Source: Vulcanimicrobiota bacterium
GTDB lineage: Bacteria > Vulcanimicrobiota > Vulcanimicrobiia > Vulcanimicrobiales > Vulcanimicrobiaceae
DNA: 64,000 bases
NCBI GenBank assembly: GCA_963833095.1
Contig: CAWHWQ010000005.1
Coordinates: 1 to 64,000, forward strand
Direction of reading: 5' to 3'
Made by a program: the position numbers and the translations under genes. The number at the start of each line of letters is the position of its first letter. Within the stretch, counting starts at the first letter, position 1. The notes under the pieces are model-generated. The model searched no databases and was not told the DNA's origin. It saw nothing but the letters and a program-made list of their open reading frames with translations. Of the stretch, positions 8,438 to 45,768 are shown one piece after another.

Positions 8438-8446
8438 GGAATTGCT

Positions 8447-8725
8447 ATGTTCCGCTTCCCATTAACAAAGCAACCGGACATTTCGCGGGAACCGTTTAGC
8501 CCGCAGCCTTTGGAGAAAGCATCGCGCCTGCGTGGCGCCGACGTCACCGAGAGCGTCTGTCCATATTGCGCCGTCGGCTGCGGGCAACTCATCTTCAGCA
8601 AGGGCGGCCAGCTCATCGACATTGAGGGCGATCCTGAAAGTCCGATCAGCGGCGGCCATCTCTGTCCCAAGGGCGCGAACGCCTACCAGCTCGCCGTCAA
8701 TTCACATCGCGCACACCGCGCCTAG
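8447..8725 (+). pseudogene. truncated formate dehydrogenase alpha subunit (N-terminal 4Fe-4S domain only)
   Basis: CPYCAVGCG...GHLCPKGA, then TAG after 92 aa against a convergent gene. Confidence 0.7.
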
Positions 8726-9750: not shown

Positions 9751-9759
9751 GGAGCCGCA

Positions 9760-10893: not shown

Positions 10894-11896
10894 CTAAGAC
10901 CAAACGCAAATTGTTGGTCAAAAGTGCGTTCTTGATTTCCCGAGCGATCCGCCGGCCGGTCGACATGGGTTCAGAGTAGTTGAGATACGAATACGGCGAT
11001 CCGTCGATGAAGAGGTTGGTTCCGGCGACAATTCGCGCCGAGATTTCCATGCAGTAAAAGTGCATATCCGGTGTAATGATCGACTCGATGCAGAACGCGC
11101 CGAAGAGGCCCTTGGGCCCGGCAATCTCCTTGCTCACCCGTACCACGTTTTCGCCCATGCGTAACGCTTCGGCCAGCATCGATTCCCGAAGGCTCACCGG
11201 CTGGTTACCGACGACCACGTAGGACGGGCTCACGTCCATGCCTTCCTGTGCTGCAGCCGGAATGCGGCCCAGCGAATCAACGTTGGTCTCGTAACGGCGG
11301 TCCATCGACATGATTTCGAGCCGGTCTTCGAGCGGCGAATAGAAATAGTGGATGTAGAGCGGGACGCCGATGATGTACTCCTGGATCGTGTATGCTTTCT
11401 TGAGTTCCTTCGAACGCTTCTCGAAGTCGCTCGCGTCGCGGATAAACATATAGCCCTTGCCGCCGCCGGCGCCGTAGAGCTTCACGATCACCGGACGATC
11501 GATTTCGGCTCCGGTCTTGAACTGGCGCGGCATCGTGATGTCGGCCCGGGTGAGCCACTCGCGCTGCAACTCACGGCTGGCTTCCCAATCCAGCACGGCC
11601 TTGTTGCCGAAATACGGAATCGTCATCTGCTTGTGCTCGTCCAGCGACAGATACGCGACGAACGATCCGTGCGGCACGATGATGACTTTCCGGCTCTCCA
11701 GCTCGCCGACTAATTTGGGAAACTCTGAGTAGCTCGCGACCGTCATCACCTCGTCGATGAACGCGAACGACCGATACAGCCGCTCGGTATCACGACTGGC
11801 GACCGCGAGCGTGCGAAAGCCTTCGTCGTGCGCGCCTTTGAGAATTTGCAGCGCCGAATGGGAGCCGAGCGTCGCGATCGTGTACGGTCGATTCAT
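10874..11896 (-). CDS. purP: formate-dependent FAICAR synthetase PurP (archaeal type, ATP-grasp)
   Basis: IATLGSHSALQILKGAHDEGF, VPHGSFVAY, DRRYETNVD, SYVVVGN, EISARIVAGTN; inside purine operon. Confidence 0.9.
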   Translation of the reverse strand: MNRPYTIATLGSHSALQILKGAHDEGFRTLAVASRDTERLYRSFAFIDEVMTVASYSEFPKLVGELESRKVIIVPHGSFVAYLSLDEHKQMTIPYFGNKAVLDWEASRELQREWLTRADITMPRQFKTGAEIDRPVIVKLYGAGGGKGYMFIRDASDFEKRSKELKKAYTIQEYIIGVPLYIHYFYSPLEDRLEIMSMDRRYETNVDSLGRIPAAAQEGMDVSPSYVVVGNQPVSLRESMLAEALRMGENVVRVSKEIAGPKGLFGAFCIESIITPDMHFYCMEISARIVAGTNLFIDGSPYSYLNYSEPMSTGRRIAREIKNALLTNNLRLVLDDGSVL

Positions 11897-12285
11897 TTCG
11901 AGAAAATAGCCCTTTCGATGGCGGGATTTAAGAGGAGGCGCTCTGCGGCCTGCGCGACCACGCCGGCGCTCACGGGTTCACCGGAAGCTTTGAAGAGACG
12001 CCAGCCGACGGGCCGGTCGGCATCGTCCTGCACGATCCACACCTCGCCGGCCCGCGGCTCGTCGTCATCGAGTACGGTGACGCGATGCTTGTTGGGGTTG
12101 TAGAGTGATTCGTCGCCTTCGACCTCCGCGATCATTTCCCGGGGTTCAGGCGCGATGAGGAAGCGCACGATGTCCGAGCGCTCGACGCGGGCGACGTCAA
12201 CGCCAAGTCGCCGCAACGTCACCAGCGCGGTGTACGCCGCGTTGTCGGGGATCTTGAGGTTGATAGCGATAGCGCGGCGGCTCAT
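11893..12285 (-). CDS. purS: PurS-like FGAM synthase subunit (long, apparently duplicated)
   Basis: LKIPD..A...L..LG, and two NP motifs (LYNPNKH, LLLNPAIE); next to purQ. Confidence 0.65.
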   Translation of the reverse strand: MSRRAIAINLKIPDNAAYTALVTLRRLGVDVARVERSDIVRFLIAPEPREMIAEVEGDESLYNPNKHRVTVLDDDEPRAGEVWIVQDDADRPVGWRLFKASGEPVSAGVVAQAAERLLLNPAIERAIFSK

Positions 12286-13052
12286 GCGCGTCGAACCGCC
12301 TCGACAAAACTGCGAAAGAACACCGCACCGCCCGACGGCGCAAGGATCGCGTCACCGCGACGACGGTCGGGATGATTGAAGGTCCACGCATCGCGCTCGG
12401 GGTGCGGCATCAGCGCGAGCACGTTGCCGTCTCGATTCACCAATCCGGCAACACCCAGCGCGGATTGGTTGGGGCTGGCCGAATCGTCAACGCTGCCGTC
12501 TTCGTGCGCGTAGACGAACGCGACATGGTCGCCTTCTTCCAGCTCGCGCAAATGCGCCATACTTGCCGCGAGGCGACCCTCGCCGTTTGCCGTCCACGAC
12601 GGAATCACCGCTTCGCGCGGCAGCACCGCCGTGATCGGCGAGCGCGCCGGATCGATGCAGAGCTTCACGTGCACGTGCGTACACACGAAGTGGGGCACGG
12701 GTCCGTTGCGCGTGAACGCCGCCGTTGGACGGCGAATCTCGCCGGTCCCCGGAACGAGACCCGCTTCGAGCAAGATTTGCGCGCCGTTGCAGATCCCAAG
12801 CACGAGTTTTCCCTTTTGCGCTCCGGCGATGACGTGATCCATCGCCACGTCGTGCGCGGCGATCGCGCCCGCGCGAATGCGATCCTCGTAGGCAAAGCCC
12901 CCGGGCAATACGTATGCATCGAAATTCGGGAGTTGCTGGGCGCGGCTCCAATGCACGAGATGCGCATCGCCGCCGCAATCGCGCAGCAATCGTGCCGTCT
13001 CCTCTTCTGAGTTCGTGCCGGGAAAGACCAGCACCGCGATCCGTTTGTTCAC
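12282..13052 (-). CDS. purQ: FGAM synthase glutaminase subunit
   Basis: VFPGTN, PGGFAYED, GICNGAQ, MPHPER. Confidence 0.95.
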   Translation of the reverse strand: MNKRIAVLVFPGTNSEEETARLLRDCGGDAHLVHWSRAQQLPNFDAYVLPGGFAYEDRIRAGAIAAHDVAMDHVIAGAQKGKLVLGICNGAQILLEAGLVPGTGEIRRPTAAFTRNGPVPHFVCTHVHVKLCIDPARSPITAVLPREAVIPSWTANGEGRLAASMAHLRELEEGDHVAFVYAHEDGSVDDSASPNQSALGVAGLVNRDGNVLALMPHPERDAWTFNHPDRRRGDAILAPSGGAVFFRSFVEAVRRA

Positions 13053-15295
13053 GGATACACCTCGTGTAGCGGGGCATACCAGCTGTCGCGCAACCGCTGC
13101 AGATCGAAGGCCTGATCGTCCACGACGAGGATCGGCCGATCGATCGTCACCCCGATCTCGTAAACGCCGCTCACGTCGTCGGCCAAGCCCTCGAACGTTT
13201 CCACGTCATCGGCGGCAACTTCGACGACGAACCCGCCGGATTCCCCAAAGTAGGCCTCGAGATCACCGGCGGCGCCATGGGTCCACTGCCACGCATCATC
13301 GATCTGCATACCCACGTGCGCGCGCCCTTTGCGCATCGTTGCGAACGCCATTTCACAAAGTGCCACGATCAAGCCGCCGCTGCCGATGGCGTGCGCCGAG
13401 CGAAGCAGTCGCGCTTGCGCCGCCTCATACATCAGATCGTGTTGCGCCAAAATGATATCGTATTCGATGCGCGGCAAATGCGCATCGCTTCGGCCCAACA
13501 CGTCGAGCAGCACGGAACCACCCAGCGCTCCTTGCGGTGCGCCAATGAGATACAAGACCGAACCCGCCTGCTTGAGCGGCATCGTCACGACCGTGTCGAT
13601 ATCGCTAAAAGCGCCAACGCACGCGACGATCGGTGAGGCTGGAATCGCCCGGCCATTTGCGGATTCGTTATATAAGCTGACGTTGCCCGAAACAAACGGC
13701 GTGCCGAAGCGCTCGGACGCGCGGGCCAGGCCGTCAATCGCCGCAACCAGCTCGTTGTAGTGATCGATCTTGCGCGGATTGCCGAAATTCAAGCAATCCG
13801 TGAGCCCGATTGCGCGCGCACCGGTCGCCACCACCTTGCGCACCGCCTCGTACACCGCGTGCTCGGCGGCGAGGCGCGCGCCGATGTGGCTGTAGCGAGG
13901 ATTGCCCGCGACGGCGAGCGCGACGCCGAGCGGACTGCCGGGTACCGGCGCGAGCACGCCCGCGCCCGCGGCGCCGCGTGGAATCACCGTACACCCACGG
14001 ACCACGGCATCGTAGCGGCGGTAGAGCGGCTCGCGCGAGCACACGTCCGGGTGCGCGAGCACGCGCTCGAGCAATTCGTCGAGTTGCACGCCGGTCACCA
14101 GGGGCCGCTCGCTGGTTAGCTCGGGCGCCGGAATCTCCGCAAACGGCAAGTCGTCGCGAATCGATCCGGTGAGAAACTCGATCTCGACGTCCATGACGGT
14201 CTGGCCACGATAGTCAAGGACGTAACGCTTCTCGGCCGTCACCGTCCCGATTTTGGTGGCGCGCGCGTTGTACGCGATCTCGGGCAGCGTGAATTCTTCG
14301 TTGTAGATGCGCAGCAACTCAGGTGTTACCGCCGGCGGCACAACCCAAAGAAGTCGCTCTTGCGTTTCGCCGACGGCAATGACTTCGGGTCGCATACCTT
14401 CAACCGCGACGTTCACCGCGTCGAGATCGATCCGCGCCCCGTAACCGCCGGCGGAAACGATCTCCGCCGAACAGCCCATAATGCCGCCCGCGCCGAGATC
14501 CTTGAATCCGACGGTCAAACCTTGGTCGTGCACGAACCGGAACACGCCATAACTCGCGCGCATGATCACGCTCTTGAGGAACGGATCGGGAACTTGCACC
14601 GCGCCCTTGTTTGAATCTTCGTCTTGCGCATCGAGCGTGAGCGACGAAAACGAGGCTCCGCCGAAGCCGCTCGGATCGGTCGCCTTGCCCACGAGCACGA
14701 TGTCCCACCCGTCGGCGCCGGGCGGCGCATACGAATGGATGACCTGCGATTCCTTGACGATGCCCATCGCAACGACGTTGACCAGACAATTGTCATCGAA
14801 GCGCTCGTCGAAGTACAGATCGCCCGCGATATTTGGGACGCCGATCGCATTGCCGTAGGCGCTGATACCGTCGACGACGCCTTGCGCCACGTAGCGCTGG
14901 TGCGAATGCGGATCGTCGATTCGCCCGAAGCGCAACGGATCGGCGACGGCGATCACCTGCGCGCCCATGCAGAGCACGTCGCGCACGATTCCGCCGATGC
15001 CGGTTGCGGCGCCCTCGAAGGGCACGACCTGCGAGGGGTGGTTGTGCGACTCGTGCGCGATGACGATACCGTAGCGCTCGCCGTTCCACTCACCCAAGTG
15101 TAAAATGCCGGAATCCTCGGCCGGCCCAAGCACGACAGACGTGCCCGACGTCGGCAGACGCTTGAGCAGATGGCGGCTCGACTTATAGCTGCAATGCTCG
15201 CTCCACTGCGCATCGAATGCGTGCAACTCCACGGCCGACGGCTCTCGTCCGAGCCGTTCGCGAATGCGCGCGAGCTCGTCAGGGCGCAGTTGCAT
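13049..15295 (-). CDS. purL: FGAM synthase synthetase subunit
   Basis: WSEHCSYKSS, ESHNHPS, GAATGIGGIVRD, ETQER, DCLNFGNP, SGNVSLYN. Confidence 0.96.
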   Translation of the reverse strand: MQLRPDELARIRERLGREPSAVELHAFDAQWSEHCSYKSSRHLLKRLPTSGTSVVLGPAEDSGILHLGEWNGERYGIVIAHESHNHPSQVVPFEGAATGIGGIVRDVLCMGAQVIAVADPLRFGRIDDPHSHQRYVAQGVVDGISAYGNAIGVPNIAGDLYFDERFDDNCLVNVVAMGIVKESQVIHSYAPPGADGWDIVLVGKATDPSGFGGASFSSLTLDAQDEDSNKGAVQVPDPFLKSVIMRASYGVFRFVHDQGLTVGFKDLGAGGIMGCSAEIVSAGGYGARIDLDAVNVAVEGMRPEVIAVGETQERLLWVVPPAVTPELLRIYNEEFTLPEIAYNARATKIGTVTAEKRYVLDYRGQTVMDVEIEFLTGSIRDDLPFAEIPAPELTSERPLVTGVQLDELLERVLAHPDVCSREPLYRRYDAVVRGCTVIPRGAAGAGVLAPVPGSPLGVALAVAGNPRYSHIGARLAAEHAVYEAVRKVVATGARAIGLTDCLNFGNPRKIDHYNELVAAIDGLARASERFGTPFVSGNVSLYNESANGRAIPASPIVACVGAFSDIDTVVTMPLKQAGSVLYLIGAPQGALGGSVLLDVLGRSDAHLPRIEYDIILAQHDLMYEAAQARLLRSAHAIGSGGLIVALCEMAFATMRKGRAHVGMQIDDAWQWTHGAAGDLEAYFGESGGFVVEVAADDVETFEGLADDVSGVYEIGVTIDRPILVVDDQAFDLQRLRDSWYAPLHEVYP

Positions 15296-16463
15296 TGGAT
15301 TGCTGCTGCAGCCCGGCATCCGCGTGCAGCACGGCGGATCGCGCGTTGGCCTGCATCAACAGCGTGCGGCCATAGAGCACCGTGTCGTCGAGCGCGAGGA
15401 GCTTGGAGCATTGCAGCGCAAGCGCCGCGGTGTCGCCTGTCCAGCCGATGACCGGCGACGACGACGCTGCATCCAGCATTGCGCGCAGCGTGTCGTCGCC
15501 AACCGCGACGAAGAACAACCGCGCAAAGGTCGCTTCGAGCTGTTGCACAACCTGGAGCACGAAACCCGGCGTCCGCGCGGGGCTGGCGATATGACGAATC
15601 GTGGGCAGGCCGAGCGATTGCAGCGCCGCCACCACGGTGTTGAGCGCTTCGGTGCGTTCGGGTGCATCGGCGACGATGGCCGCCATTCCCGGTCGCATGA
15701 CCGGAAACGTTCCGACCAGATCGGCAACTTCTTCATACGCCGCTTTGACGGTAGCAAGTGCCGCGTCATCGACGGCTTCCAGGTTGCGATAGAGCTGCTT
15801 GTCGAGCATACGGTCTTCGCGGCCTTGCGGCCAAATGCGCCACGAGTCGTTGTCGATCACGTCGGCAATAACGAGTTGTCCCTTTTCGTTTCCCGCCGTC
15901 AAGCGCCCGAACTCAACCTTGAGGTCGACCAGCAGCACATCCCGCCGGCGCCAAGCATGCGAGAGAATATCGAAGGTAAGGCGTGCCAGCTCGCTCATAG
16001 CGCCCACTTCCGCCGGCGTGGCGATGCCGCGCGCGACGATCTCGTCCGGCGCGATCTGCGGGTCGTGATTCGCGTCGTCCTTGACGAAGAACTCGATCAC
16101 GCGTGGCACCAGCAACATGCCGCGCGTCACGCCCGGATTGCGCCGCACGAACGATCCGGCCGCGACGCCGCGCACCACGACTTCGAGCGGCAACATGTTG
16201 CAACGCCGCACGAGCATCTCGTTGTTGTCGTCATCTTCGCCGCCGCTCAAATAGTGCGTCGGCAGACCGCACAGATTGAGCAGACGGAAAACCCGCGCCG
16301 TCGTCTGCGCCGCGAGACGACCCTTGCCCGCGATCTCGTTGCGCCGCGCACCGTCACCGGCCGAAATATTATCCGTCTGCGCGACGACGAGCTGATCCGG
16401 ATGCCCGGGGTTCTCATAGAGAATCTTTGTCTTGCCCGACGCAATCTCCACACCCTTATTCAT
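15279..16463 (-). CDS. purC: SAICAR synthetase fused to a degenerate PurE-like domain
   Basis: GKTKILY, PLEVVVR, LVDLKVEFG, ADVIDNDSWRIW, DKQLYR, plus about 140 aa C-terminal extension. Confidence 0.9.
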   Translation of the reverse strand: MNKGVEIASGKTKILYENPGHPDQLVVAQTDNISAGDGARRNEIAGKGRLAAQTTARVFRLLNLCGLPTHYLSGGEDDDNNEMLVRRCNMLPLEVVVRGVAAGSFVRRNPGVTRGMLLVPRVIEFFVKDDANHDPQIAPDEIVARGIATPAEVGAMSELARLTFDILSHAWRRRDVLLVDLKVEFGRLTAGNEKGQLVIADVIDNDSWRIWPQGREDRMLDKQLYRNLEAVDDAALATVKAAYEEVADLVGTFPVMRPGMAAIVADAPERTEALNTVVAALQSLGLPTIRHIASPARTPGFVLQVVQQLEATFARLFFVAVGDDTLRAMLDAASSSPVIGWTGDTAALALQCSKLLALDDTVLYGRTLLMQANARSAVLHADAGLQQQSNATAP

Positions 16464-16465
16464 GC

Positions 16466-16622
16466 TTTGTCATCGCGTCGCAGCGCTGTTCTGCAACTGA
16501 GGAAAAGTTCGCGATGCGCCGGAGCCCGGAGGGCGAGAGGCGCGCTCGCGTAACTGCTCGCGCGACACGATGTCGCGCACCCTTTTCCGAGGTGCGGGAC
16601 AGTGCTGCGACGCGATGACAAA
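16466..16622. repeat. 157-bp element with long imperfect terminal inverted repeats
   Basis: TTTGTCATCGCGTCGCAGCGCTGTTCTGCAACTGAGGAAAAG matches the reverse complement of the far end TTTGTCATCGCGTCGCAGCACTGTCCCGCACCTCGGAAAAG. Confidence 0.8.
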
Positions 16623-18038
16623 TCATACTTCTACCTTCTTCTGCTTCGGAAACTCAGCTAAACCATCGATGCGATCGGCCAGCGCGCGCGCGCGTTTTGG
16701 CGCGGTGCCGACGTGTTTGCCCGGATCGAGCAACCGGCGGATCTCGGCCGGATCGAGAAGCGCGGTCAGCGTCGCGTCGCCGGCGAGTGTTTGCGCAAGT
16801 GGATTGTCTTGACCGGCTGCAAGTGCCGCCCACGCTTCCATCGCGGCCTGGCGGATACGCTCGTGCAACACCTGACGATCGCCGCCGGCGCGTGCCGCTT
16901 CCATCATCACGGCTTCAGTCCCGGCAAAGGGCCCATACACGCGGAGGTTGTGCGCGATCCGGCGTTCCTCAACGCGCAACCCGTCGATCACTTTGCGCGC
17001 GAGGGTCACGATCTCGTCCGCGCACAGGATCGCTTCGGGAAGTATCGTACGCCGATTGGCGCTGTCGTCGAGGGTTCGCTCCAGGTAATTCGTCGCCGCG
17101 TTCTGCCACGCGACGTCGCTGTAGCTCACTAACAGCCGCGCGAGCGAATCGATGCGCTCGCACAGAATGGGATTGCGCTTGAACGGCATCGCCGAACTGC
17201 CGACTTGCGAGCGGCCGAAAGGCTCGGCGAGCTCACCGAATTCGGGGCTGCTCAAGATGCGCACGTCGGCGGCAAATTTTGAGAGCGACGCGCCGAGGCC
17301 GGCAAGTCCGGACAGCAGCAAGTAGTCGAGCTTGCGCGGATAGGTCTGCGTGCTCACGTCGCGTGCGTGCAAACCGAATTGCTCGAGGACGTGCTCTTCG
17401 AACATCGCCGACGTGCCTTGATGATCGAGCAGGTGCTCGTACGAGGCTGCGGTTCCGACCGCGCCGCGCAGACCTTTGGTCGTCAGTTGGTCGAAGACGA
17501 AGCGCAGGTTGGTATCGTCGATCAAGCAATCTTGCGCGTAGACGCCGAGGCGATAGCCCAGCGTCGTCGGCTCGGCCGGCTGCAAGTGGGTAAACGCCAT
17601 GCAGACCAAATCGGCGTACTGTCGTATTTTCGCGGCAAAGCTCTGCAATAGGCCGTGTAAATTCGCCCCAACCGCGGCGAGGCCTAAACGCAACCGGTAG
17701 GTCTCAACCGTGTCCTCGATGTCCATCGAGGTCGCTCCGAGGTGCAATTTCCCGCCGCCGATCTTTGCCTGCGAGGCAAAGACGCGGATTTCGGCCATCA
17801 GGTCGTGGTGAATCTCCCGCTCGATAGCCAGCGCTGCCTCGATATCGATTTCGTGCGCGTGCGCCCGCAAATCGGCGACTTCGGCGTCGGTGATCAGCCC
17901 GGCGCGCGCTTGTGCTTGGGCGAGCGCAACCCAAACCGCACGCCAGAGTTTGCGGCGTTCTTCCTCGGAAAAGAGCGTGCGTAGCTCGGCGCTGCCGTAT
18001 CTCCAAGAGAACGGCGAGGCGTAGGTACGGTATTCCAT
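16623..18038 (-). CDS. purB: adenylosuccinate lyase
   Basis: HLGATSMD, THLQPAEPTT, GSSAMPFKRNP, LERTLDDSA. Confidence 0.96.
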   Translation of the reverse strand: MEYRTYASPFSWRYGSAELRTLFSEEERRKLWRAVWVALAQAQARAGLITDAEVADLRAHAHEIDIEAALAIEREIHHDLMAEIRVFASQAKIGGGKLHLGATSMDIEDTVETYRLRLGLAAVGANLHGLLQSFAAKIRQYADLVCMAFTHLQPAEPTTLGYRLGVYAQDCLIDDTNLRFVFDQLTTKGLRGAVGTAASYEHLLDHQGTSAMFEEHVLEQFGLHARDVSTQTYPRKLDYLLLSGLAGLGASLSKFAADVRILSSPEFGELAEPFGRSQVGSSAMPFKRNPILCERIDSLARLLVSYSDVAWQNAATNYLERTLDDSANRRTILPEAILCADEIVTLARKVIDGLRVEERRIAHNLRVYGPFAGTEAVMMEAARAGGDRQVLHERIRQAAMEAWAALAAGQDNPLAQTLAGDATLTALLDPAEIRRLLDPGKHVGTAPKRARALADRIDGLAEFPKQKKVEV

Positions 18039-18065
18039 GGGACAAAGGCTGTCGTTCGCCTCCGC

Positions 18066-20204
18066 CTAGAGCGCTGCCTCGTCGCCTTTGGTCGTAGCGT
18101 CCGAAGGCGCCGCGCGATGCGCGAAATCTGCCAGCGCGACCGTGACGTGATCGGGTGTTCCCGCATCGATCGCGCGGAGCGCCGCCGCACGGCCGGCCTC
18201 ATCCACAAAGTGCCGCAGCTGCTCCTCGGTCATCCCTGCCGTCCGTGCTTCGAGGTCGTCGAGCGCCGCGGAAAGGTCGAAGGCCAGCGGTTTGCCGTCG
18301 AGCAGCGTATGCAGCGCATCGCGGCGCGCCTGCGGCGTCAATTCGGTCAAATCCACGAATTCGGGGAACCGGCTGCGCAGCTCGGGGTCGATCGTCGCCG
18401 CATCGACCGTCTCGCCGACGATAAAGAGCGGCTCCTTGCGCTCGGAAAGCCGATCGATCGTCACCGCGAGGTGCGCGATCGAGCCGGGATCGCCGTAGGC
18501 CGGGATCTCGACAACCACGATGGCGTGGGCACTCGCGCGCGCCCGCTCCAGCGCTTCGTCGAGCGCGTCGATGTTGGCTGGAATCACCGGCAAGCCGGTC
18601 TGATCCGCCAGGTTTTTGATGGCACTCATGCGCGCGTCGGCCGACGGGCCGGCGATGAGCACCGCCCGCGGCACGGTGATGCCCTGCGACTCCATCGTCG
18701 CCACATGGGCGAACATCGCGGCCAGCATACGCGTGCGCTTTTGCACGGGCTCGGGCAAATCGGAGTCGATTGCATCGGCCGGGATGTTCGCCACCGCCTC
18801 GGCGGCCTCGCTGTCGATCGGCACCGTTGCGGCTTCGGCTCCGAATGTGGGCGGCACGAGATCGACCACGGCACCGAAGCGTGCGATGATGCCCTCGTCG
18901 AGGCCCTCCTGCGACATTGCGCCGGCGATCACCCAGACGTCGTTGCGACCTTCGAGCTCCCCCCACTCGGTCCAAAGTGCTTGCACGACTTCCTTACGCA
19001 TTGCTTCGTACGCGGCTGACCCGGTCGTGGTAAAGAACCGTTCGGCCTCGTCAATAAAGATGATGGAGCGCGCGCGTTTTGCGGTTGCGAAGATGCGCGA
19101 GACCGTTGCGGCGCCTTGACCGACGTACCCGATCTTGATCTGCGAGAACGAAAGATGCAGCAACGTCGCGGCCGCCGCGCGCGAAATCGCCTGCATGACG
19201 TCGGTGAGATCGATGCGCTCGCTGCTCTGGATGAAGAGCCCGCGCCGAATCGCCGGGTCACCCAGCCGGAAGAGAATAACTTGACGGGTCAATTGGTTAC
19301 GAACGGTTGCCGGTAGGGCCAAACTTTTGACGATCGCTGCCGTGCCGTCGTATTCACGCAGCTCTTCTTCCATCCGGCGCACGCGTTCGTCGACGTCCTT
19401 GCGGGCTCCCGAGTGCGAGGCGACCTCGCGAAATTCCGTGGCTTGCGCGGCGACCTGCGGCAAATGGCGCTCGAGCGCGCGCTGGAAAAACACACCGTAC
19501 GACCGGATGAACGGATTTTCGAGATCGGCGTGCACGAGCGTTGGCTTCCGATCCGGAAAACGCGTGAGCAACACGTTACTGCGCCGCTCGTCGATCACTT
19601 CAACGAAGGTTTCGTCCAGCGCTTCTTTCTCTCGCACGCCCGGGATCTTCCACGCGCGATCTTCGAGCACGCCGTCGATCGGACCGTCGTACCCGATTAA
19701 CGGATGATTCAGACCGGGTTCGTATCGCGTGAAGGCGACGAAGCGAACGTCTTTGCCGTCACTGCCTAGATACGATGCGCGCGCCTTCCGAATCGGTGCG
19801 AGGCACTGATCGCGCGCGATGAAGTAGCCGATGAACGCGAGTGCAAGGTAGATCGCGATCGCGAGAAGGAGGCCGCTGGCTTGGAGCGCGTACATGAGGC
19901 CCGCCGCAACGACCACAAATCCGCCAAGGGCAAAAATCTGATAGGGTCCCGTCCACCCCAGCAGCAAGGCTTGATAGATCGTGTCGCGCTCGCGCATGCG
20001 TTGCTGCTGGCCGTAAACGTCGCGCCATGCTGCGCTGACCATCGTGTCGAGCGATGCCCGAATGGCAACAAGCCGCTCCCGGTCGGCGGCAATTTGCCGA
20101 TCGAGATCGTCGCGTTCAGCTCGTACGCGCTCGACGTCGTCCTTGAGCCATTGCTTGGGGTCGACATCGGGCGAGTCGGTCGGGGGCGGGTCGACGACGT
20201 CCAT
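18066..20204 (-). CDS. membrane-anchored tandem AAA+-like protein with degenerate Walker A motifs
   Basis: Coiled coil, two TM helices, pore loop GYVGQG, Walker B IIFIDEAE, C-terminal lid TAGMT..QL...VDEA; no GKT. Confidence 0.75.
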   Translation of the reverse strand: MDVVDPPPTDSPDVDPKQWLKDDVERVRAERDDLDRQIAADRERLVAIRASLDTMVSAAWRDVYGQQQRMRERDTIYQALLLGWTGPYQIFALGGFVVVAAGLMYALQASGLLLAIAIYLALAFIGYFIARDQCLAPIRKARASYLGSDGKDVRFVAFTRYEPGLNHPLIGYDGPIDGVLEDRAWKIPGVREKEALDETFVEVIDERRSNVLLTRFPDRKPTLVHADLENPFIRSYGVFFQRALERHLPQVAAQATEFREVASHSGARKDVDERVRRMEEELREYDGTAAIVKSLALPATVRNQLTRQVILFRLGDPAIRRGLFIQSSERIDLTDVMQAISRAAAATLLHLSFSQIKIGYVGQGAATVSRIFATAKRARSIIFIDEAERFFTTTGSAAYEAMRKEVVQALWTEWGELEGRNDVWVIAGAMSQEGLDEGIIARFGAVVDLVPPTFGAEAATVPIDSEAAEAVANIPADAIDSDLPEPVQKRTRMLAAMFAHVATMESQGITVPRAVLIAGPSADARMSAIKNLADQTGLPVIPANIDALDEALERARASAHAIVVVEIPAYGDPGSIAHLAVTIDRLSERKEPLFIVGETVDAATIDPELRSRFPEFVDLTELTPQARRDALHTLLDGKPLAFDLSAALDDLEARTAGMTEEQLRHFVDEAGRAAALRAIDAGTPDHVTVALADFAHRAAPSDATTKGDEAAL

Positions 20205-20222
20205 AACCAAAGTTATCGGCAG

Positions 20223-21209
20223 TTAGCGCCGACTCAAGCCGGAGAGTTCCGCGGTGATGCGCTCAACCAGCGTGCGGTGATCGTCGGGATCGTTCCCGGC
20301 CGCGCCGGTGACGATCGCTTCGACGCCGTGAACCGCCCGCTCGTAGGCGATGCGGGCGCGGCGTTCGCCGACCCTCCCGGCGATTGGCCGCAGGATGCGC
20401 TCGCGCCACTTGGCTCGTGCCGGAAGCTCGCCGCCGGGGCGCGCCAACTCCCAGAGCAGCCCGCATTCCGTCGCCAGCGCCGAGAGCAGCGGAATGGCCG
20501 CACCGCGCGGATCGTTGGCAAAGAACTCGTGGGCGATGCCCAGCGCTTCGCCGACGTGTCCCTCAACCAGGGCACTGGCGTAGCGGTAGGCCTTGGGATC
20601 CTCGATTGAAAGCGACTCGCCCTCGAGGTCCTTGTAGGTAATTTTCTTGCCGGCGAGCGCAAGTTTTTCGAGGTCGTTGCGGACGCTTGCGAGATCGGCT
20701 TGGCTGCGTGCAAGTTCGCTACGCACACGCGGCTCCGCGCTCGCGCCGAGCGCCGTCAACACTTCGTCGACGAAGCGGGCCCGCGTCTCTTCGTTCGCGC
20801 TCGTATCGATGCGCAGCGCGGCGCGACCGGCCTGTGCGCCGAGTGGTTCCGGACGCTGCGAGCGCGGCGAAAGCAGATCGAGCACGACCAGCGTGTTGCC
20901 GTCGGGAACCGCTTCCATGACTTCGAAGAGATCGCGGCGCGGTTGCGCGCGCAGCGTCTGTGCGTCGCTTACCACGACCACGCGCCGATCGGCAAGAAAC
21001 GGCATCGCCGAAACCGCTTCGCGCGCGCGCCCCGCGTCGTTCCACTCCGATGCCGCGATGCGCTCGAGATTGAGCTCCCGCATGTCCGGCGGTAGCACAC
21101 GGTCCAGAAGAACTTCGAGCGCGCGCTCGGCCAGAGCACGCTCCGTGCCTTCGATGACGACCAGGTTTCCGATCTTTGGCGCCTTATCGATGAATTCGTA
21201 GAATTTCAT
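20223..21209 (-). CDS. holA: DNA polymerase III delta subunit
   Basis: VVIEGTE..LA, LNLE, AMPFLADRRVVVV, NDLEKLAL; 328 aa. Confidence 0.85.
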   Translation of the reverse strand: MKFYEFIDKAPKIGNLVVIEGTERALAERALEVLLDRVLPPDMRELNLERIAASEWNDAGRAREAVSAMPFLADRRVVVVSDAQTLRAQPRRDLFEVMEAVPDGNTLVVLDLLSPRSQRPEPLGAQAGRAALRIDTSANEETRARFVDEVLTALGASAEPRVRSELARSQADLASVRNDLEKLALAGKKITYKDLEGESLSIEDPKAYRYASALVEGHVGEALGIAHEFFANDPRGAAIPLLSALATECGLLWELARPGGELPARAKWRERILRPIAGRVGERRARIAYERAVHGVEAIVTGAAGNDPDDHRTLVERITAELSGLSRR

Positions 21210-21211
21210 TT

Positions 21212-21319
21212 GAAAAGGCCTCGCACGTTGCGCTCGGCCCGGTGCTCCGACTCGCTTTCGGCACTTCGCGCCGAAAACTCATCTGCGCACCCCCGTGCGA
21301 CTATGCGCACGGGCCCCCC
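21212..21319. repeat. multi-hairpin intergenic element (REP-like or ncRNA)
   Basis: Stems CCCGTGCG/CGCACGGG, TTTCGGC/GCCGAAA, GGCC/GGCC. Confidence 0.45.
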
Positions 21320-22341
21320 GTTACAAACGCGCTTGCGTTGGGGCGCAATTCCAGTGCGGGAATCGTTTCGTAGTACGGTGCGCGAATCACGCCGTATTCC
21401 GTCACGAAAGCGGTGACGAGATGTCCGGGCGTGACGTCGAAGGCGGGATTGAAAACCTGCGCGCCGGCCGGCGCGACCACGGTACCGCCAAACGCGGTCA
21501 CTTCGCTTGCGGCACGCTCTTCGATGTAGATCGACGCACCCGATTCGATGCTGAAATCGAACGTCGAGCGCGGCGCGGCGACGTAAAATGGAATTCCATG
21601 GTGCGCCGCTAGAATCGCAAGGCCATACGTGCCGATCTTGTTGGCCGTATCGCCGTTGCGCGCGATGCGATCCGCGCCGACGATCACGAGATCGATGTTC
21701 TTGCGCGCCATCGCGAGCGCGGCCGCACCGTCGACTTGCAGCGTCGCGTCGACGCCGGCCTGCGCCAGCTCGAAATAGGTCAATCGCGCGCCCTGCAAGA
21801 GCGGGCGCGTCTCGTCAACAAACACGTGCGGATGCTTGCCGGCGCGCTGCGCTGCGATGATGACGCCGAGCGCCGTGCCGCCGCCGGCGGTCGCGATCGG
21901 TCCGGTGTTGCAATGCGTGAGGATCCGGCCGTCCTTAGGGATCAGGTCGAGACCCGCGTCGGCAATGGCCGCATCCACGGCGAGCTGCTCGCGATGAATG
22001 GCCTGCGCTTCGGCGCGCATGTCGTCGGAGGCGAGCACACGATCGACCGCCCATGCGAGATTGACGGCCGTCGGGCGCGCATCGCGAATGCGCCGCGCGG
22101 CGGCGTGAAATTCTTCGTCGCTCGTCATCGCATCGCGCAACATCGCGACACCGTACGCTCCGAAAACACCGATCGCCGGAGCGCCGCGCACGGCCAGTGT
22201 CTTGATCGCCTCTTCGATGTCGTCGACCGTGCGTGCGCGTTTGCGCTCGAGCGCATGCGGGATCAGCCTTTGATCGACATAAGTCAACGCCTCGCCGTCG
22301 AATGCGACGGCCGAGAGCTCATCGGGAGCAGGGGTGGCCAT
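21301..22341 (-). CDS. mtnA: S-methyl-5-thioribose-1-phosphate isomerase
   Basis: VRGAPAIG, RPTAVNL, THCNTG, ETRPLLQGARLT, GDTANKIGTY, NPAFDVTP. Confidence 0.95.
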   Translation of the reverse strand: MATPAPDELSAVAFDGEALTYVDQRLIPHALERKRARTVDDIEEAIKTLAVRGAPAIGVFGAYGVAMLRDAMTSDEEFHAAARRIRDARPTAVNLAWAVDRVLASDDMRAEAQAIHREQLAVDAAIADAGLDLIPKDGRILTHCNTGPIATAGGGTALGVIIAAQRAGKHPHVFVDETRPLLQGARLTYFELAQAGVDATLQVDGAAALAMARKNIDLVIVGADRIARNGDTANKIGTYGLAILAAHHGIPFYVAAPRSTFDFSIESGASIYIEERAASEVTAFGGTVVAPAGAQVFNPAFDVTPGHLVTAFVTEYGVIRAPYYETIPALELRPNASAFVTGGPCA

Positions 22342-22370
22342 GGTGGGAATCCTTTCGGGATTCCCAGCCT

Positions 22371-22670
22371 TCAAACCCCGGCCGGAACTTGGGCGGTGTA
22401 ACAGGTGCGGCAGTACACCGGCCGATCGCCGCGTGGGCGGAACGGTACGGTCGTATTGACTCCGCACGAGGCACAAACGGCCTCAAAGCTGGGTCGAGCT
22501 CCAGACGGAGCAGGCACGTGTTCGCCGTTTTGCGTCCTGCGCGCCTGACGGCATTCGCGGCAACGCTGGGGTTGATTCTGAAAACCTTTTTCGGCAAAGA
22601 ACTGCTGCTCGCGAGCGGTAAAGACGAACTGATTCCCACAGTCCTTGCACGTGATCATCTTGTCTTCCAC
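22371..22670 (-). CDS. zinc-ribbon / CxxC-x17-CxxC domain protein
   Basis: CKDC..FVFT..EQ.FF..KGF...P.RC..C and CASC....VPFRP...RPVYCRTC. Confidence 0.9.
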   Translation of the reverse strand: MEDKMITCKDCGNQFVFTAREQQFFAEKGFQNQPQRCRECRQARRTQNGEHVPAPSGARPSFEAVCASCGVNTTVPFRPRGDRPVYCRTCYTAQVPAGV

Positions 22671-22794
22671 AGGGTCGGAGCCTCCGGAGCATTCAACCGT
22701 TAAGGCCAGGTAAAGTGCTACTTTTGTAAGGCGGCTCCCTTCCGTCCCAGGCAGCCAACTGAGCGGTAGGCCCTTTGGCCTGCCCCGGGCCCTT

Positions 22795-23295
22795 CTACGA
22801 GCGGAAACCAGCCCGCGGAAGCTTGGTCGGAATGTTGACTAGGGTCGCTGCAGCCATCGCCGCTTCGTAGCCTTTGTCGCCCCGCGCGGGATCGGCGCGT
22901 TCTTGCGCCTGCGCGAGATTCTCGGTAGTCAGCACCCCAAAACCAATCGGGACCGCCGTCGCGAGCTGCACGTCCATGATCCCGCGCGCGCACTCGCCCG
23001 CGACAAAATCGAAGTGCGGCGTCTCGCCGCGAATCACCACGCCGAGCGCAACGATGCCGTCGTAGCGGTCAGCTTCGATCAACTTGCGGCAGGCCAGCGG
23101 TATTTCGAAACAGCCGGGGACTTCGACGAGCGCGATATCAACGCGCTCGACCCCGCAATCGGCCAGCGCGCGCTGCGCGCCGTCGATCATCCAATCGGTC
23201 AGCTCGCGATAAAAGCGTGCGGCAACGATCGCAAAGCGGCGTCCCGCGCACTGCGGCACGGGTTCGCGCTTGCCGTTACCGTCACGCGGTTTCAC
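22795..23295 (-). CDS. ribH: 6,7-dimethyl-8-ribityllumazine synthase
   Basis: VPGCFEIP, LGVVIRGETPHFD, GFGVLT, KGYEAA. Confidence 0.96.
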   Translation of the reverse strand: MKPRDGNGKREPVPQCAGRRFAIVAARFYRELTDWMIDGAQRALADCGVERVDIALVEVPGCFEIPLACRKLIEADRYDGIVALGVVIRGETPHFDFVAGECARGIMDVQLATAVPIGFGVLTTENLAQAQERADPARGDKGYEAAMAAATLVNIPTKLPRAGFRS

Positions 23296-24701
23296 GACGC
23301 GACGGTTTCGTCGAGCATGTGACCCAACTTCGCGCGCTTGGTGGCCATATAACGCTTGTTGTGTGCGGTCGGCGCGGTCTGCATCGCGACCCGGCCGACG
23401 ATCTTGATCCCATAGCCTTCCAGGCCGAAGATCTTGCGCGGATTGTTGGTGATCAGGCGCAACTCTTTGATACCCAGGTCGGCGAGGATCTGCGAACCGA
23501 TGCCGTAGTCGCGCTTGTCAACGGGCAGGCCTAGCGCGAGGTTGGCCTCGACCGTGTCCGCGCCATGATCTTGCAACTCGTAGGCGCGCAACTTGTTGGC
23601 TAGACCAATACCACGGCCTTCTTGACGCAAATACAGGAAGACACCGCGCCCTTCTTTGGCGATCATTTCCATCGCACCGTCGCGCTGCGCGGCGCAATCG
23701 CAGCGAATCGAGTGCAGTGCATCACCGGTCAAACATTCGGAGTGCACGCGAACGAGGACGTCCTTCCCGCTGCTGATATCGCCCATCACCAGGGCGACGT
23801 GCGTATTTCCGTCGATGGTCGTTTCGTACGCGACGCCCTTCCAGTCTCCGGTGGTGGTCGGCAGGTTGAATTCGGCGACGCGTTTGACAAGTTTTTCGGT
23901 ACGCATACGGTACGCAATGAGATCCTTCACGGTGATGAGCCGAAGATTGTGTCGATCGGCATACACCCGTAACCCGTCGAGACGTTCCATCGTTCCGTCC
24001 TCGGCCATGATTTCGCAGATCACTCCTGCGGGATAGAGTCCGGCCATGCGCGCGAGATCGACCGATGCCTCGGTTTGCCCCGCACGCACCAGGACGCCGC
24101 CCGCTCGCGCGCGCAGCGGAAAGGTGTGACCCGGTCGCAAGAAATCCGCTGGCACGGCGTCGGGGTCGAGCAGCTTCTTGACTGTCGCCGCGCGATCGTG
24201 CGCCGAAATTCCCGTCGTCGTGACACCACGCGCTTCGACCGAAACGGTGAACGCCGTTTCGTGCACGGCGGTATTGTCGCGAACCATTTGCGGAATCTGC
24301 AAATCGTCCAAGCGCGATCCCAGCAGCGGAACGCAAATCAATCCGCCGGCTTCTTTGCGCATGAAGTTGATCGCGTCGGGCGTGATCTTCTCCGCGGCCA
24401 TCACCAGATCGCCTTCGTTTTCGCGATCCTCGTCATCGAGTACGACCACCATTTTGCCGGCGCGAATATCCTCGAGCGCATCCGGGATCGTATCGAAGGG
24501 CGAAGCGCGTTCGGCGGGCGCGGGAGCCAACTCGGGCAGCACGGCGGTCAAGCGCTGCAAGGTCCGGTAGGACGGCTCACGGCGTCCGGCCCGCAAAAGG
24601 GACACCGCCGACTCGGTTACTCCCGCCTTGAGCGCAAGCTCGGAGGCCGAGAGACCGGCGGCCTCAAGTGCGGCGTTGAGGTTCGCGGCAAATTCGCTCA
24701 T
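23292..24701 (-). CDS. ribBA: XRE-type HTH fused to bifunctional DHBP synthase / GTP cyclohydrolase II
   Basis: N-terminal LSASELALKAGVTESAVSLLRAGRREPS; RibB DDEDRENEGD, TTGISAHDR, RPGH; RibA RVHSEC, RCDC, QEGRGIG, TNNPRK. Confidence 0.93.
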   Translation of the reverse strand: MSEFAANLNAALEAAGLSASELALKAGVTESAVSLLRAGRREPSYRTLQRLTAVLPELAPAPAERASPFDTIPDALEDIRAGKMVVVLDDEDRENEGDLVMAAEKITPDAINFMRKEAGGLICVPLLGSRLDDLQIPQMVRDNTAVHETAFTVSVEARGVTTTGISAHDRAATVKKLLDPDAVPADFLRPGHTFPLRARAGGVLVRAGQTEASVDLARMAGLYPAGVICEIMAEDGTMERLDGLRVYADRHNLRLITVKDLIAYRMRTEKLVKRVAEFNLPTTTGDWKGVAYETTIDGNTHVALVMGDISSGKDVLVRVHSECLTGDALHSIRCDCAAQRDGAMEMIAKEGRGVFLYLRQEGRGIGLANKLRAYELQDHGADTVEANLALGLPVDKRDYGIGSQILADLGIKELRLITNNPRKIFGLEGYGIKIVGRVAMQTAPTAHNKRYMATKRAKLGHMLDETVAS

Positions 24702-24710
24702 AGGACCTCA

Positions 24711-24740
24711 ACCCTATGCCCGGACTTGACAAATGTCAAG
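24711..24740 (-). promoter_or_regulatory. sigma70 promoter of HTH-ribBA overlapped by a palindromic operator
   Basis: TTGACA (24739-24734), 17 nt, TAGGGT (24716-24711); palindrome CTTGACA-AA-TGTCAAG (24725-24740). Confidence 0.75.
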
Positions 24741-24859
24741 ATGATATATCTGACTCGGCTTTGCACATTAAGGGCGACTTGCCCAATAAATCGGCGACCT
24801 GCCCATAAAGTGACCAAGCGGGTTCAGTATTGGGTCCTTTGCCATGCTAAGCTTCTCGC

Positions 24860-25124: not shown

Positions 25125-25328
25125 TTAGTTCCGCTTGCGCTTCACTAAAGGCAGATCATCCATGCTGCCAAACACCCCGATGAACGTCAGCCCTTGAAGC
25201 GGCAACGCGATAAGTCCGCCTAGCCACTCATTGTCAGTCCACTGCCATACGAAGAAGCCCAGCACGCCGAAACCCAGCCCCGCGAGGATGAAGCATAATC
25301 GCAAAGCGACGTTAGCTGCAAGCCTCAC
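25125..25328 (-). CDS. small two-TM membrane passenger protein
   Basis: 67 aa with two hydrophobic helices and a basic tail; GAGGA SD before GTG. Confidence 0.55.
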   Translation of the reverse strand: MRLAANVALRLCFILAGLGFGVLGFFVWQWTDNEWLGGLIALPLQGLTFIGVFGSMDDLPLVKRKRN

Positions 25329-25861
25329 TGTTCGTCCTCATTGTCAGGCGGAGACAATGCCAATTCGATCTGCTCGCCCTGTTGCGGAAATGCTGCGCGG
25401 AAAAGGCGCATGAATTCGTCTTTGTCGCGCGCCGCATCCCGACCCCTTCGCGCCGGGAGCTTGGCTGCCTCGGCTGGCTGCCCATAAAAGACCGGGTCTG
25501 CCTATTAAAGAAGCCTCGATCATGAGTTTATGGGCAAAGCCATCTGACTCGGCTTTGCCCACAAAGGCGCGGTGCGCCGTGATTTAGTGGGCAGCACGCC
25601 GGTTTTATGGGCAGCGGCTACCTGGGGCGCTTTCGTGTCCCGCCGCAGTCTGGAGGGCAGATGCAATGTTGAGTAACCAAAAATGCGGCAACCAGGTGAG
25701 AACCGCGGTGAAGCACCTGATTGTTCTTATACGACATCCACCCGCCTTTTTGTCGTCTCAGGCCAGTTCGTAGGTCGCTGCGAAGCTGCCGGGATGTATG
25801 CATCCTCGCCGACTTCGTGTTCGAGGCCTTGAGCTGCCAACTGCTGTGGCCAACCCGACGC

Positions 25862-30127: not shown

Positions 30128-30574
30128 CTAGGCGCAAGCTTTAAGAAATGCGTCTCGTACGCGAGGCGGCAGCGGCATGCTCTTGCCCGTCCTTCGGCTG
30201 ACACAGGCAACCGTTAACGTCAGCACCGCATTGGCGACGCCGGTCGTTTCGTTGAAGAGCACGCATTTCCAACGGATACTCGACGCGCCGACCTTCTCGA
30301 TGTGCGTGCGCACGCGGAGCCAATCGCCCATGAGCGACGGCGCGTGAAAGGTCGCTTCGGCGCGAACCCGCGGTAACCAGAAGTCCAAATCGTCGAACAC
30401 CGTGTTGTACGGGAACCCGAGTTCACGAAACATTTCCATCTCCGCGTACTCCGCGTAGCGCCAATAGTTTGTAAAATAGATGATCCCGGCGATATCGCAG
30501 TCGCCCCATAGCACCTGTGAGCGCGCCTCAAAGGCGCGCGCACGCGGCGGCAGGTCATCGTGAAACTGCGGCAT
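30128..30574 (-). CDS. acyl-CoA thioesterase (4HBT/YbgC hot-dog family)
   Basis: WGDCDIAGIIYFTNY motif. Confidence 0.88.
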   Translation of the reverse strand: MPQFHDDLPPRARAFEARSQVLWGDCDIAGIIYFTNYWRYAEYAEMEMFRELGFPYNTVFDDLDFWLPRVRAEATFHAPSLMGDWLRVRTHIEKVGASSIRWKCVLFNETTGVANAVLTLTVACVSRRTGKSMPLPPRVRDAFLKACA

Positions 30575-31148
30575 GCACGTAACGCGCCAGTGGATCGACT
30601 TCGATGTTCACGCGCGAGCCGACCGGACGCGCGCCTAGCGACGTGCGCGCCAACGTCTCGGGAATCAACGCGATTTCGAACCAGTCCTCACCAACTGCGG
30701 CAACGGTGAGGCTCACGCCGTCCATGGCGATGAAGGCCTTCTCGACGATCATCGGTGCGAGCGCCGCCGGACGTTCGATGCGCACGCGCTCGCCCTGACC
30801 TTCTGCCGCGCGCGTAAGTACTGCAGCCGTCGCGTCGACATGACCGTAGACGAAGTGGCCGCCCATACGATCGCCGACGCGCAGCGAGTATTCCAGATTT
30901 ACCGCATCGCCGGCACCTAAATCGCCAAGAGTACTGCGCGCGAGCGTTTCGGGAACCACGTCAAACCAAATTCGATCGCCTTCGATACGCGTCGCGGTGA
31001 GACACACGCCGTCAACGGCAATCGAGTCCTTGACCTCCGGTACCTCATGCTCCACGCCTTCTGCGGCAATGGTCAACGTTACGCCGCCATCAGCGCCGGA
31101 TGCGCTGCTTACGACGGTTCCGCGATAGCCGATGAGTCCACTGAACAT
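30555..31148 (-). CDS. ribE: riboflavin synthase
   Basis: MFSGLI start, SIAVDGVCLT, GGHFVYGHVD, DGVSLTV, VNIEVD. Confidence 0.95.
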   Translation of the reverse strand: MFSGLIGYRGTVVSSASGADGGVTLTIAAEGVEHEVPEVKDSIAVDGVCLTATRIEGDRIWFDVVPETLARSTLGDLGAGDAVNLEYSLRVGDRMGGHFVYGHVDATAAVLTRAAEGQGERVRIERPAALAPMIVEKAFIAMDGVSLTVAAVGEDWFEIALIPETLARTSLGARPVGSRVNIEVDPLARYVHAAVSR

Positions 31149-45620: not shown

Positions 45621-45694
45621 TCCGGGTTCATCTAACGGTAGGATGACAGTCTCTGAATCTGTTCATGGGTGTTCGAGTCACTCACCCGGAGCCA
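45621..45694 (+). tRNA. tRNA-Gln(CTG)
   Basis: Acceptor TCCGGGT/ACCCGGA, anticodon loop CT-CTG-AA (one T-T pair in the stem), T-loop TTCGAGT, encoded CCA. Confidence 0.9.
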
Positions 45695-45695
45695 C

Positions 45696-45768
45696 GGCCC
45701 CATCGTCTAGAGGCCTAGGACGTTGCCCTCTCACGGCAGTAACACCGGTTCGAATCCGGTTGGGGCTA
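45696..45768 (+). tRNA. tRNA-Glu(CTC)
   Basis: GGCCCCA/TGGGGCT acceptor, TTGCC-CT-CTC-AC-GGCAG anticodon arm, TTCGAAT; CCA not encoded. Confidence 0.95.

Follow-up and report, generated by a model that had tools for sequence, protein, structure and literature searches.

A helix-turn-helix domain fused to RibBA and a conserved palindrome at its own promoter: a candidate autorepressing riboflavin enzyme in one order of Vulcanimicrobiota

Bacterial riboflavin genes are the textbook case of control by flavin mononucleotide (FMN) riboswitches, and a locus from the Vulcanimicrobiota raises the question of whether an enzyme of the pathway could regulate its own synthesis. Within a stretch of 64,000 nucleotides from contig CAWHWQ010000005.1 (the window, by which we mean the whole stretch), the ribBA gene, for 3,4-dihydroxy-2-butanone 4-phosphate (DHBP) synthase and GTP cyclohydrolase II, begins with a helix-turn-helix (HTH) domain of the XRE type, and a palindrome overlaps its promoter. 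An earlier, sequence-only reading of the window had proposed that this protein, here called HTH-RibBA, represses its own ribBA-ribH operon. We favour the same explanation, at a probability of roughly 0.65: HTH-RibBA would be a trigger enzyme that binds the palindrome and represses transcription from its own promoter. The circumstantial part of the proposal has held up well, as the fusion is fixed, the near-unique candidate operator is kept in all fused loci compared, and it is missing where the HTH is missing; the repression itself we infer from these observations.

The fusion is unambiguous at the level of protein architecture. HTH-ribBA is one open frame of 469 amino acids at 23292-24701 on the minus strand, with full-length orthologues in relatives, and three Pfam domains in this single frame bear out the description of an XRE-type HTH of about 60 residues running into an intact RibB-RibA. 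The XRE/HTH_3 domain occupies residues 1-58 (24528-24701, minus strand), with PF01381 matching residues 10-55 above its cut-off (E 6.8e-8, 32.9 bits against a cut-off of 23) and scoring 33-40 bits in orthologous fragments. It is followed by a Pro/Ala-rich linker of residues 59-70 (24492-24527, minus strand), variable in both length and sequence and modelled as low-confidence coil. The DHBP synthase (RibB) domain at residues 74-264 (23910-24482, minus strand) is complete, PF00926 being matched over profile positions 2-191 of 191 (E 2.4e-85), and so is the GTP cyclohydrolase II (RibA) domain at residues 274-438 (23388-23882, minus strand), where PF00925 is matched over positions 2-164 of 165 (E 5.4e-71); TIGR00506 and TIGR00505, respectively, match the two domains as well. 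Residues 66-466, and no others, match the RibBA equivalog of NCBIfam, NF006803, with 622.6 bits (cut-off 569), so the first 65 or so residues are an addition to an otherwise normal RibBA. Apart from HTH_3/HTH_31, DHBP_synthase and GTP_cyclohydro2 the protein contains no further Pfam domains, and annotation pipelines label it as plain RibBA. Cys323, Cys334 and Cys336, the putative three zinc-binding cysteines of GTP cyclohydrolase II, and a DRENEGD block are invariant in an alignment of 22 sequences.

The gene for lumazine synthase, ribH, lies at 22795-23295 on the minus strand (PF00885, E 5.7e-52, with TIGR00114 matching too), and its start overlaps the ribBA stop by 4 nucleotides, which places both genes in the same operon; ribH directly follows ribBA in 37 of 41 loci, the other four being cut by contig ends. 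The view that RibB has no separate start of its own needs qualification, since GTG and TTG codons do occur in frame within the HTH and linker, although none is conserved among orthologues. HTH-RibBA of the window has no methionine at the position where unfused RibBA starts. The fused proteins of four loci from genera g45 and g18 (L128-L131) keep a methionine exactly there, at the start of the RibB domain, and it is conceivable that an HTH-less isoform of the enzyme arises in these genera by internal initiation.

Presence of the fusion in relatives was assessed with HTH residues 1-69 as a query (E <= 1e-6) against 401 genomes of the phylum, a tally that includes seven genomes flagged as unpublished. 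The domain was matched in 274 of 296 genomes of the window's own family and in all five of its sister family, as against none of 99 genomes from 19 other families of the phylum; the HTH matches listed lie mostly in open frames of about 470 amino acids, some in shorter ones. Inspection of 20 of the 22 negative genomes in the window's family found that in eight the gene is cut by a contig end, that nine have no ribBA match, and that a true, intact but unfused RibBA is present in three (G111, G185 and G171). The 120 best database homologues (81-100% identity) all measure 458-506 amino acids and, with one exception, carry PF01381 (119 of 120). A comparison of 41 related genomes, again with one flagged as unpublished (G036), draws the boundary of the fusion sharply: proteins of the two fused families align over the full query (1-469, or from residue 2-3), whereas in 11 genomes of a third family, from another order of the same class, the alignment begins only at residue 50-64 or thereabouts, and in the four loci of that family that were inspected the RibB domain comes first in the protein and the gene stands behind ribE. 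The HTH-RibBA fusion is fixed across one order of Vulcanimicrobiota and is not an artefact. The genome to which the window belongs (G000; 2.8 Mb, 80.7% complete) yields two RibBA matches, both of them fused, and four relatives assembled as single contigs (G002, G006, G021 and G023) have the fused locus and no unfused one. As the fused protein is the sole form of RibBA found in all five, it is presumably the working enzyme, and the only RibBA of complete relatives would be expected to have both DHBP synthase and GTP cyclohydrolase II activity.

Further afield, the top 150 of a search against 50%-identity representatives returned no other HTH-RibBA, only P0234 and P0247, fragments from this same clade, aligning with the N-terminus; such a search is blind to independent fusions with a different HTH. 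Six RibBA proteins in this set (P0124, P0136, P0142, P0217, P0228 and P0264) have N-terminal extensions of about 95-150 amino acids and were rejected as candidates, there being no HTH match in any of them and no Pfam match in the extensions of the first three, which measure 105-150 amino acids. A RibBA from elsewhere, P0154, has a HAD hydrolase domain as its N-terminal addition, and in a protein atlas two other RibBA clusters have HTH_3 in 16-17% of their members. An N-terminal alignment scan of genome contigs recovered the fused loci L034-L036 among the 80 matches listed; apparent N-terminal matches at L068, L086, L043, L039 and L094 proved to be open-frame noise or ribE and not HTH domains. 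The named relatives (L036 and the atlas cluster) carry the label Vulcanimicrobiota, and two further labels of metagenome-assembled genomes, Verrucomicrobiia and Ca. Acidiferrales, are probably loose assignments.

The second element of the case lies immediately upstream of the gene. The candidate operator, CTTGACA-NN-TGTCAAG, is a perfect palindrome of 16 base pairs at 24725-24740 that covers the -35 region and the beginning of the spacer, with the -35 hexamer TTGACA (24734-24739, minus strand) as its left half. The -10-like hexamer TAGGGT (24711-24716, minus strand) follows 17 nucleotides after the -35 and ends 9 nucleotides before the ATG at 24701. Promoter, palindrome and start codon are thus positioned as the sequence-only reading had them, with a small correction to the central dinucleotide, for which AA holds on the plus strand; the coding strand reads CTTGACA-TT-TGTCAAG. 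A search for the 16-mer that tolerated up to two mismatches found a single copy in the window, where shuffled sequence led to an expectation of 0.08 (at least one match in 8 of 100 shuffles). In aligned relatives a TAnnnT hexamer at the same fixed spacing of 17 nucleotides ends 6-9 nucleotides before the start codon, and because of this short distance the ribBA-ribH mRNA is probably leaderless, its start being placed by the geometry of -10 and ATG; this leaves no room for a leader RNA. A consensus terminator scan found one terminator-like site, inside ribH.

The palindrome is conserved wherever the fusion was compared. We aligned 27 distinct upstream regions on TTGAC and added four more loci, and the pattern TTGAC(A/G)-NN-(T/C)GTNAA is kept in all 31 fused loci. 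Among the 27 regions the invariant bases are TTGAC, a G-T two bases past the variable dinucleotide and then A-A, while the positions adjoining them (A, T and G) are conserved in 26, and the sixth base of the -35 hexamer is likewise A in 26. The central dinucleotide takes seven forms (TT, TA, AT, TG, AC, GT and CT), and the 25 nucleotides 5' of the palindrome hold almost no information. The TTGACA hexamer begins 35-38 nucleotides (once 42) before the start. In one locus (L025) both half-sites have changed symmetrically, to TTGACG..CGTTAA.

At the genome scale the site is close to unique. Of the 25 genomes of the two fused families with a match to the pattern TTGACANNTGTYAA, 21 have a single site, which always lies within about 40 nucleotides of the HTH-ribBA start. 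The exceptions are two genomes with two gene copies and two sites each (G000 and G008), one with a contig-end repeat (G020) and one with an extra site (G018); four genomes of the window's family have no match, carrying instead the variants TGTAAA, TGTGAA or CGTTAA. A reversed control pattern gave 0-1 matches. In a weight-matrix scan of G000 the two ribBA sites score 31.7 and the next best site, at C5:314613 in coding-looking sequence, 20.4. No operator site was found at ribE, ribD or ribF of this genome, ribE lying at about 30555-31148 of the window behind a comF-like gene and ribD on another contig, and the regulon appears to consist of ribBA-ribH alone. The extra site in G018 is a second perfect palindrome, on contig C129 (L117, 513-526), with a flank like that of the ribBA promoter; on either side lie a partial gene for a membrane protein and one for an aldo/keto reductase, no gene begins close by, and the site may be a relic copy of the ribBA promoter.

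The three genomes with an intact but unfused RibBA are cases of natural loss. G111 has lost the HTH and keeps TTGACA-17-TAGCCT-6-ATG without the right half-site. Neither HTH nor palindrome is present in G185 and G171, where a ribosome-binding site leads the ribBA start and, in G171, the gene stands behind ribE. The pattern TTGACANNTGTNAAG has no match anywhere in the genomes of these three.

The HTH itself shows the signs of a maintained domain. Among 10 coding sequences of the genus, the ratio of non-synonymous to synonymous substitution rates (dN/dS, Nei-Gojobori) is 0.081 for HTH residues 1-58, as compared with 0.052 for RibB, 0.032 for RibA and 0.27 for the linker, and the HTH is under purifying selection. 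Across the two families 18 positions of the helix-turn-helix region are invariant. AlphaFold predicts four helices (residues 2-15, 19-26, 30-37 and 45-54) with block values of the predicted local distance difference test (pLDDT) of 73-91, followed by the linker as coil. The nearest solved sequences to residues 1-69 are DBP48, SinR and the 434 repressor/Cro, at weak E-values of 0.002-0.8. That the domain binds DNA is suggested by the conserved palindrome with which it co-occurs.

Taken together, these observations enabled us to propose a model for the control of the operon. RibB and RibA are homodimers in solved structures, and it is plausible that the enzyme part holds HTH-RibBA as a dimer, the geometry of which is our assumption. 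The two HTH domains, on flexible linkers of about 12 residues, would then bind the two half-sites of the 16-base-pair palindrome, and protein sitting on the -35 hexamer and spacer would keep RNA polymerase off the promoter. In this model the leaderless ribBA-ribH operon would be placed under negative feedback from the amount of enzyme.

How far the metabolic state of the enzyme would enter into this is less certain. Some dependence of HTH-RibBA binding on a metabolite is a tentative possibility, which we rate below an even chance. Slightly more doubtful is plain, concentration-dependent autorepression, and to the same doubtful degree we can envisage that occupancy of the active sites by GTP, ribulose-5-phosphate or a pathway product sets the ability of the HTH pair to bind the operator, with RibBA acting as the sensor. 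The suggestion in the earlier reading that the protein senses GTP, ribulose-5-phosphate or flavin is pure conjecture.

Several points weigh against autorepression by HTH-RibBA. The flexible linker provides no obvious route by which the ligand state of the enzyme could reach the HTH, and the AlphaFold model of the enzyme part, built from 22 close sequences, is poor (mean pLDDT 55.9) and silent on dimer geometry. A consensus promoter scanner reported no promoter at ribBA, an outcome explained by TAGGGT agreeing with TATAAT at only three of six positions. Conservation of the left half-site is to be expected from its role as the -35 hexamer, which leaves TGTNAAG, the right half, as the sole independent evidence for an operator, and the clean case in which HTH and half-site were lost together is a single genome, G111. 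Protein and site show an apparent covariation: where the recognition-helix residue after A-[IV]-S is Leu, operator position 11 is C in 16 cases, A in four and T in one, and where it is Tyr the position is T (9) or G (1), but this amounts to three changes on a tree of the enzyme part, or two to three independent pairs, which is too few. Finally, in two loci of an unfused lineage (L114 in G037 and L115 in G033, site at 3001-3014 in each) TTGACA-NN-TGTCAA lies at the promoter of an ArsR-like gene, indicating that this kind of site is not specific to HTH-RibBA and that another regulator could bind it. The ArsR-like gene heads a cluster with glyoxalase-like and aquaporin-like genes that looks like an arsenic-resistance operon.

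This last observation leads to the rival that survives best, namely that a separate regulator of the XRE, ArsR or a similar family binds the palindrome and that the fused HTH binds other DNA or has another role, such as anchoring the enzyme at the nucleoid or contacting RNA. The identical core at ArsR-gene promoters in two unfused relatives would fit such a regulator, as would the several other weak HTH candidates found in each genome, yet a site found roughly once in each genome, invariably at the fused gene, and missing genome-wide from three HTH-less relatives would demand a one-promoter regulator lost along with the HTH, which is the less economical assumption. XRE regulators, moreover, commonly autoregulate. 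We therefore consider a separate regulator unlikely.

A little less likely again is that there is no operator at all, the conserved block being only a strong leaderless promoter and the HTH having a function unrelated to it. Half of the palindrome is indeed the -35 hexamer, and the -10 and the start codon stand at set distances from it, in line with a leaderless promoter; unfused G111, which keeps -35, -10 and start without the right half, demonstrates that the promoter can exist without that half-site. What a promoter by itself leaves unexplained is the right half: the spacer beside a -35 is not normally conserved, yet TGT-N-AAG is invariant or almost so across two families while the central dinucleotide and the remaining spacer vary. 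The full pattern occurs about once per genome, so it is no general promoter feature, and it decays exactly where the HTH is absent. Furthermore, a domain with a dN/dS of 0.08 must have a function, and HTH_3 domains bind DNA.

Very improbable, lastly, is a role for the palindrome at the RNA level, as a hairpin with a stem of six pairs and a loop of four bases. Such a hairpin would influence the termination, translation or stability of a longer transcript begun further upstream, and the apparent promoter would then be no start site. In its favour, a G-U pair would survive the right-half change of C to T (TGTCAA to TGTTAA), A-T is replaced by G-C in a compensatory manner at one locus, and some genomes have a G-rich stretch before the ATG that might be a ribosome-binding site. 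Against it, A or G at that right-half position breaks the pair in 5 of 31 loci, the left arm varies only once, the -10-like hexamer stands only 6-9 nucleotides from the start, the G-rich stretch is not conserved, no Rfam family matches at the palindrome, and G111 keeps -35, -10 and ATG without any hairpin.

Autorepression by HTH-RibBA therefore remains our preferred explanation, and it bears on how the operon relates to the usual control of riboflavin genes by RNA. In the window nothing reached an Rfam gathering score except two tRNAs, encoded by adjacent genes at 45621-45768 on the plus strand. The FMN riboswitch (RF00050) was found neither in the 80.7% complete genome of the window nor in the 41 relatives, and under stricter filters it was found in none of the 151 genomes searched, which represent 19 families of the phylum and also cover lineages whose RibBA is plain; the same search was positive in 7 of 14 reference genomes used as a control. 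The statement that there is no room for a riboswitch before the gene was right, the reason being the probable leaderless mRNA. The contrast drawn between the fusion and riboswitch control does not hold, as the absence of the riboswitch is not specific to fused genomes. Throughout the phylum as sampled the riboswitch is missing, which means that the fusion is not a one-for-one replacement of it within this clade; it seems instead to be the answer of a single lineage within a phylum that lacks the customary RNA switch.

At its end, another contig of the same genome bin holds a stretch of about 18 kb (C4:250001-268404) that is syntenic with window positions 6325-24756 (nucleotide identity 84-95%). 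A second HTH-ribBA lies within it, whose protein is 99% identical in amino acids and whose palindrome is the same; synteny ends 16 nucleotides upstream of that palindrome. The C4 stretch would be either a co-binned related strain or species (contamination is 3.1%) or a large duplication. In the window, a direct repeat of 26 nucleotides (88%; 24748-24773 and 25542-25567) brackets a segment of 794 base pairs with an open frame for a membrane-like protein of 67 amino acids (25125-25328), beyond which TGCCCAYAAA / TTTRTGGGCA repeats, in either orientation, form a cluster, with repeats at 24771-24809 and 25470-25620. In four loci of the genus (L007, L010, L011 and L013) this cluster directly adjoins the ribBA operator on its upstream side, suggesting an insertion in the window; the cluster might be a small mobile repeat or serve as a second element of regulation. 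Downstream, between ribH and an IF-2B/MtnA-like gene, lies a gene of 99 amino acids with a zf_Tbcl double treble-clef zinc finger (22371-22670). The longest open frame of the IF-2B/MtnA-like gene, 21301-22476, overlaps it by about 100 nucleotides, so its true start is probably further in.

Set beside known regulators, two hallmarks of a trigger enzyme are present here, with enzyme and DNA-binding domain in one polypeptide and a conserved operator at a promoter of the same pathway, and in function HTH-RibBA resembles NadR, BirA, PutA and above all archaeal RbkR. The HTH of NadR is of the Cro/C1 (XRE) type and the DNA-binding domain of RbkR is a winged HTH, another type than XRE, while BirA switches through dimerisation driven by biotinyl-AMP and PutA through flavin reduction and membrane binding. 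HTH-RibBA falls outside all four families because their defining enzyme domains are absent from it. As outlined in one paper (PMC5397151), NadR combines an HTH with enzyme domains and represses pathway genes, and HTH-RibBA would match it in having an N-terminal HTH, two enzyme domains of a cofactor pathway and repression at a palindromic box. Its nicotinamide mononucleotide (NMN) adenylyltransferase and ribosylnicotinamide kinase domains are not found in HTH-RibBA, however, and NadR controls several operons and senses NAD, whereas the site described here stands at one operon only. RbkR, in the same source (PMC5397151), is an archaeal riboflavin enzyme joined to a DNA-binding domain, which controls riboflavin genes, is often autoregulated within an rbkR-ribB unit and occurs in hosts without FMN riboswitches. 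The likeness to a riboflavin-pathway enzyme with a DNA-binding domain is close, but RbkR is archaeal and its enzyme, the CTP-dependent riboflavin kinase, acts late in the pathway, where it meets the product, whereas here the first committed enzymes of the pathway are fused to an XRE HTH in Bacteria. Pfam and NCBIfam find no CTP-dependent riboflavin kinase domain in HTH-RibBA, and a bacterial-type flavokinase is encoded elsewhere in the genome. BirA and PutA, according to that paper (PMC5397151), likewise unite an enzyme and a repressor of its own pathway in a single polypeptide, though with other DNA-binding domains and other enzymes than HTH-RibBA.

Two further comparisons concern mode of action. 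The FMN riboswitch (RFN element) has the same target genes, ribBA and ribH, and the same purpose, but is RNA-based and sits in a 5' leader, whereas the HTH-RibBA mRNA is apparently leaderless. Operators of the 434 system are short palindromes overlapping the regulator's own promoter. With the 434 repressor/Cro and SinR our protein shares a weak likeness of HTH sequence and a short palindromic candidate operator of the 14-16 base-pair class, the difference being that those proteins dimerise through small domains of their own, whereas here a bifunctional enzyme of 400 amino acids would supply the dimer.

In keeping with the suggestion that the fusion is undescribed, a search of full-text literature, which did not extend to subscription journals or to databases of domain architecture, yielded neither an HTH-RibBA nor any XRE protein regulating riboflavin genes, and a term search of a 2025 review of riboflavin regulation (PMC12542839) had no match for XRE, helix-turn-helix, autoregulation or DNA-binding. 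The only protein regulator of the riboflavin pathway that we found in print is archaeal RbkR (PMC5397151). The present locus would be its differently built bacterial counterpart, in which RibBA is joined to an XRE HTH, with a predicted regulon of one site and a leaderless promoter, and it would add a predicted new member to the short list of trigger enzymes. The arrangement is present in some 280 of the genomes sampled from a soil phylum that is widespread and little represented in culture, and as a system of one protein and one site of 16 base pairs it is compact and open to experiment. A further question that it poses is how flavin synthesis is controlled in other parts of the phylum, among them lineages with plain ribE-ribBA-ribH operons. 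Should HTH-RibBA prove to be responsive to a metabolite, riboflavin biosynthesis in Bacteria would have its first feedback regulator that is a protein.

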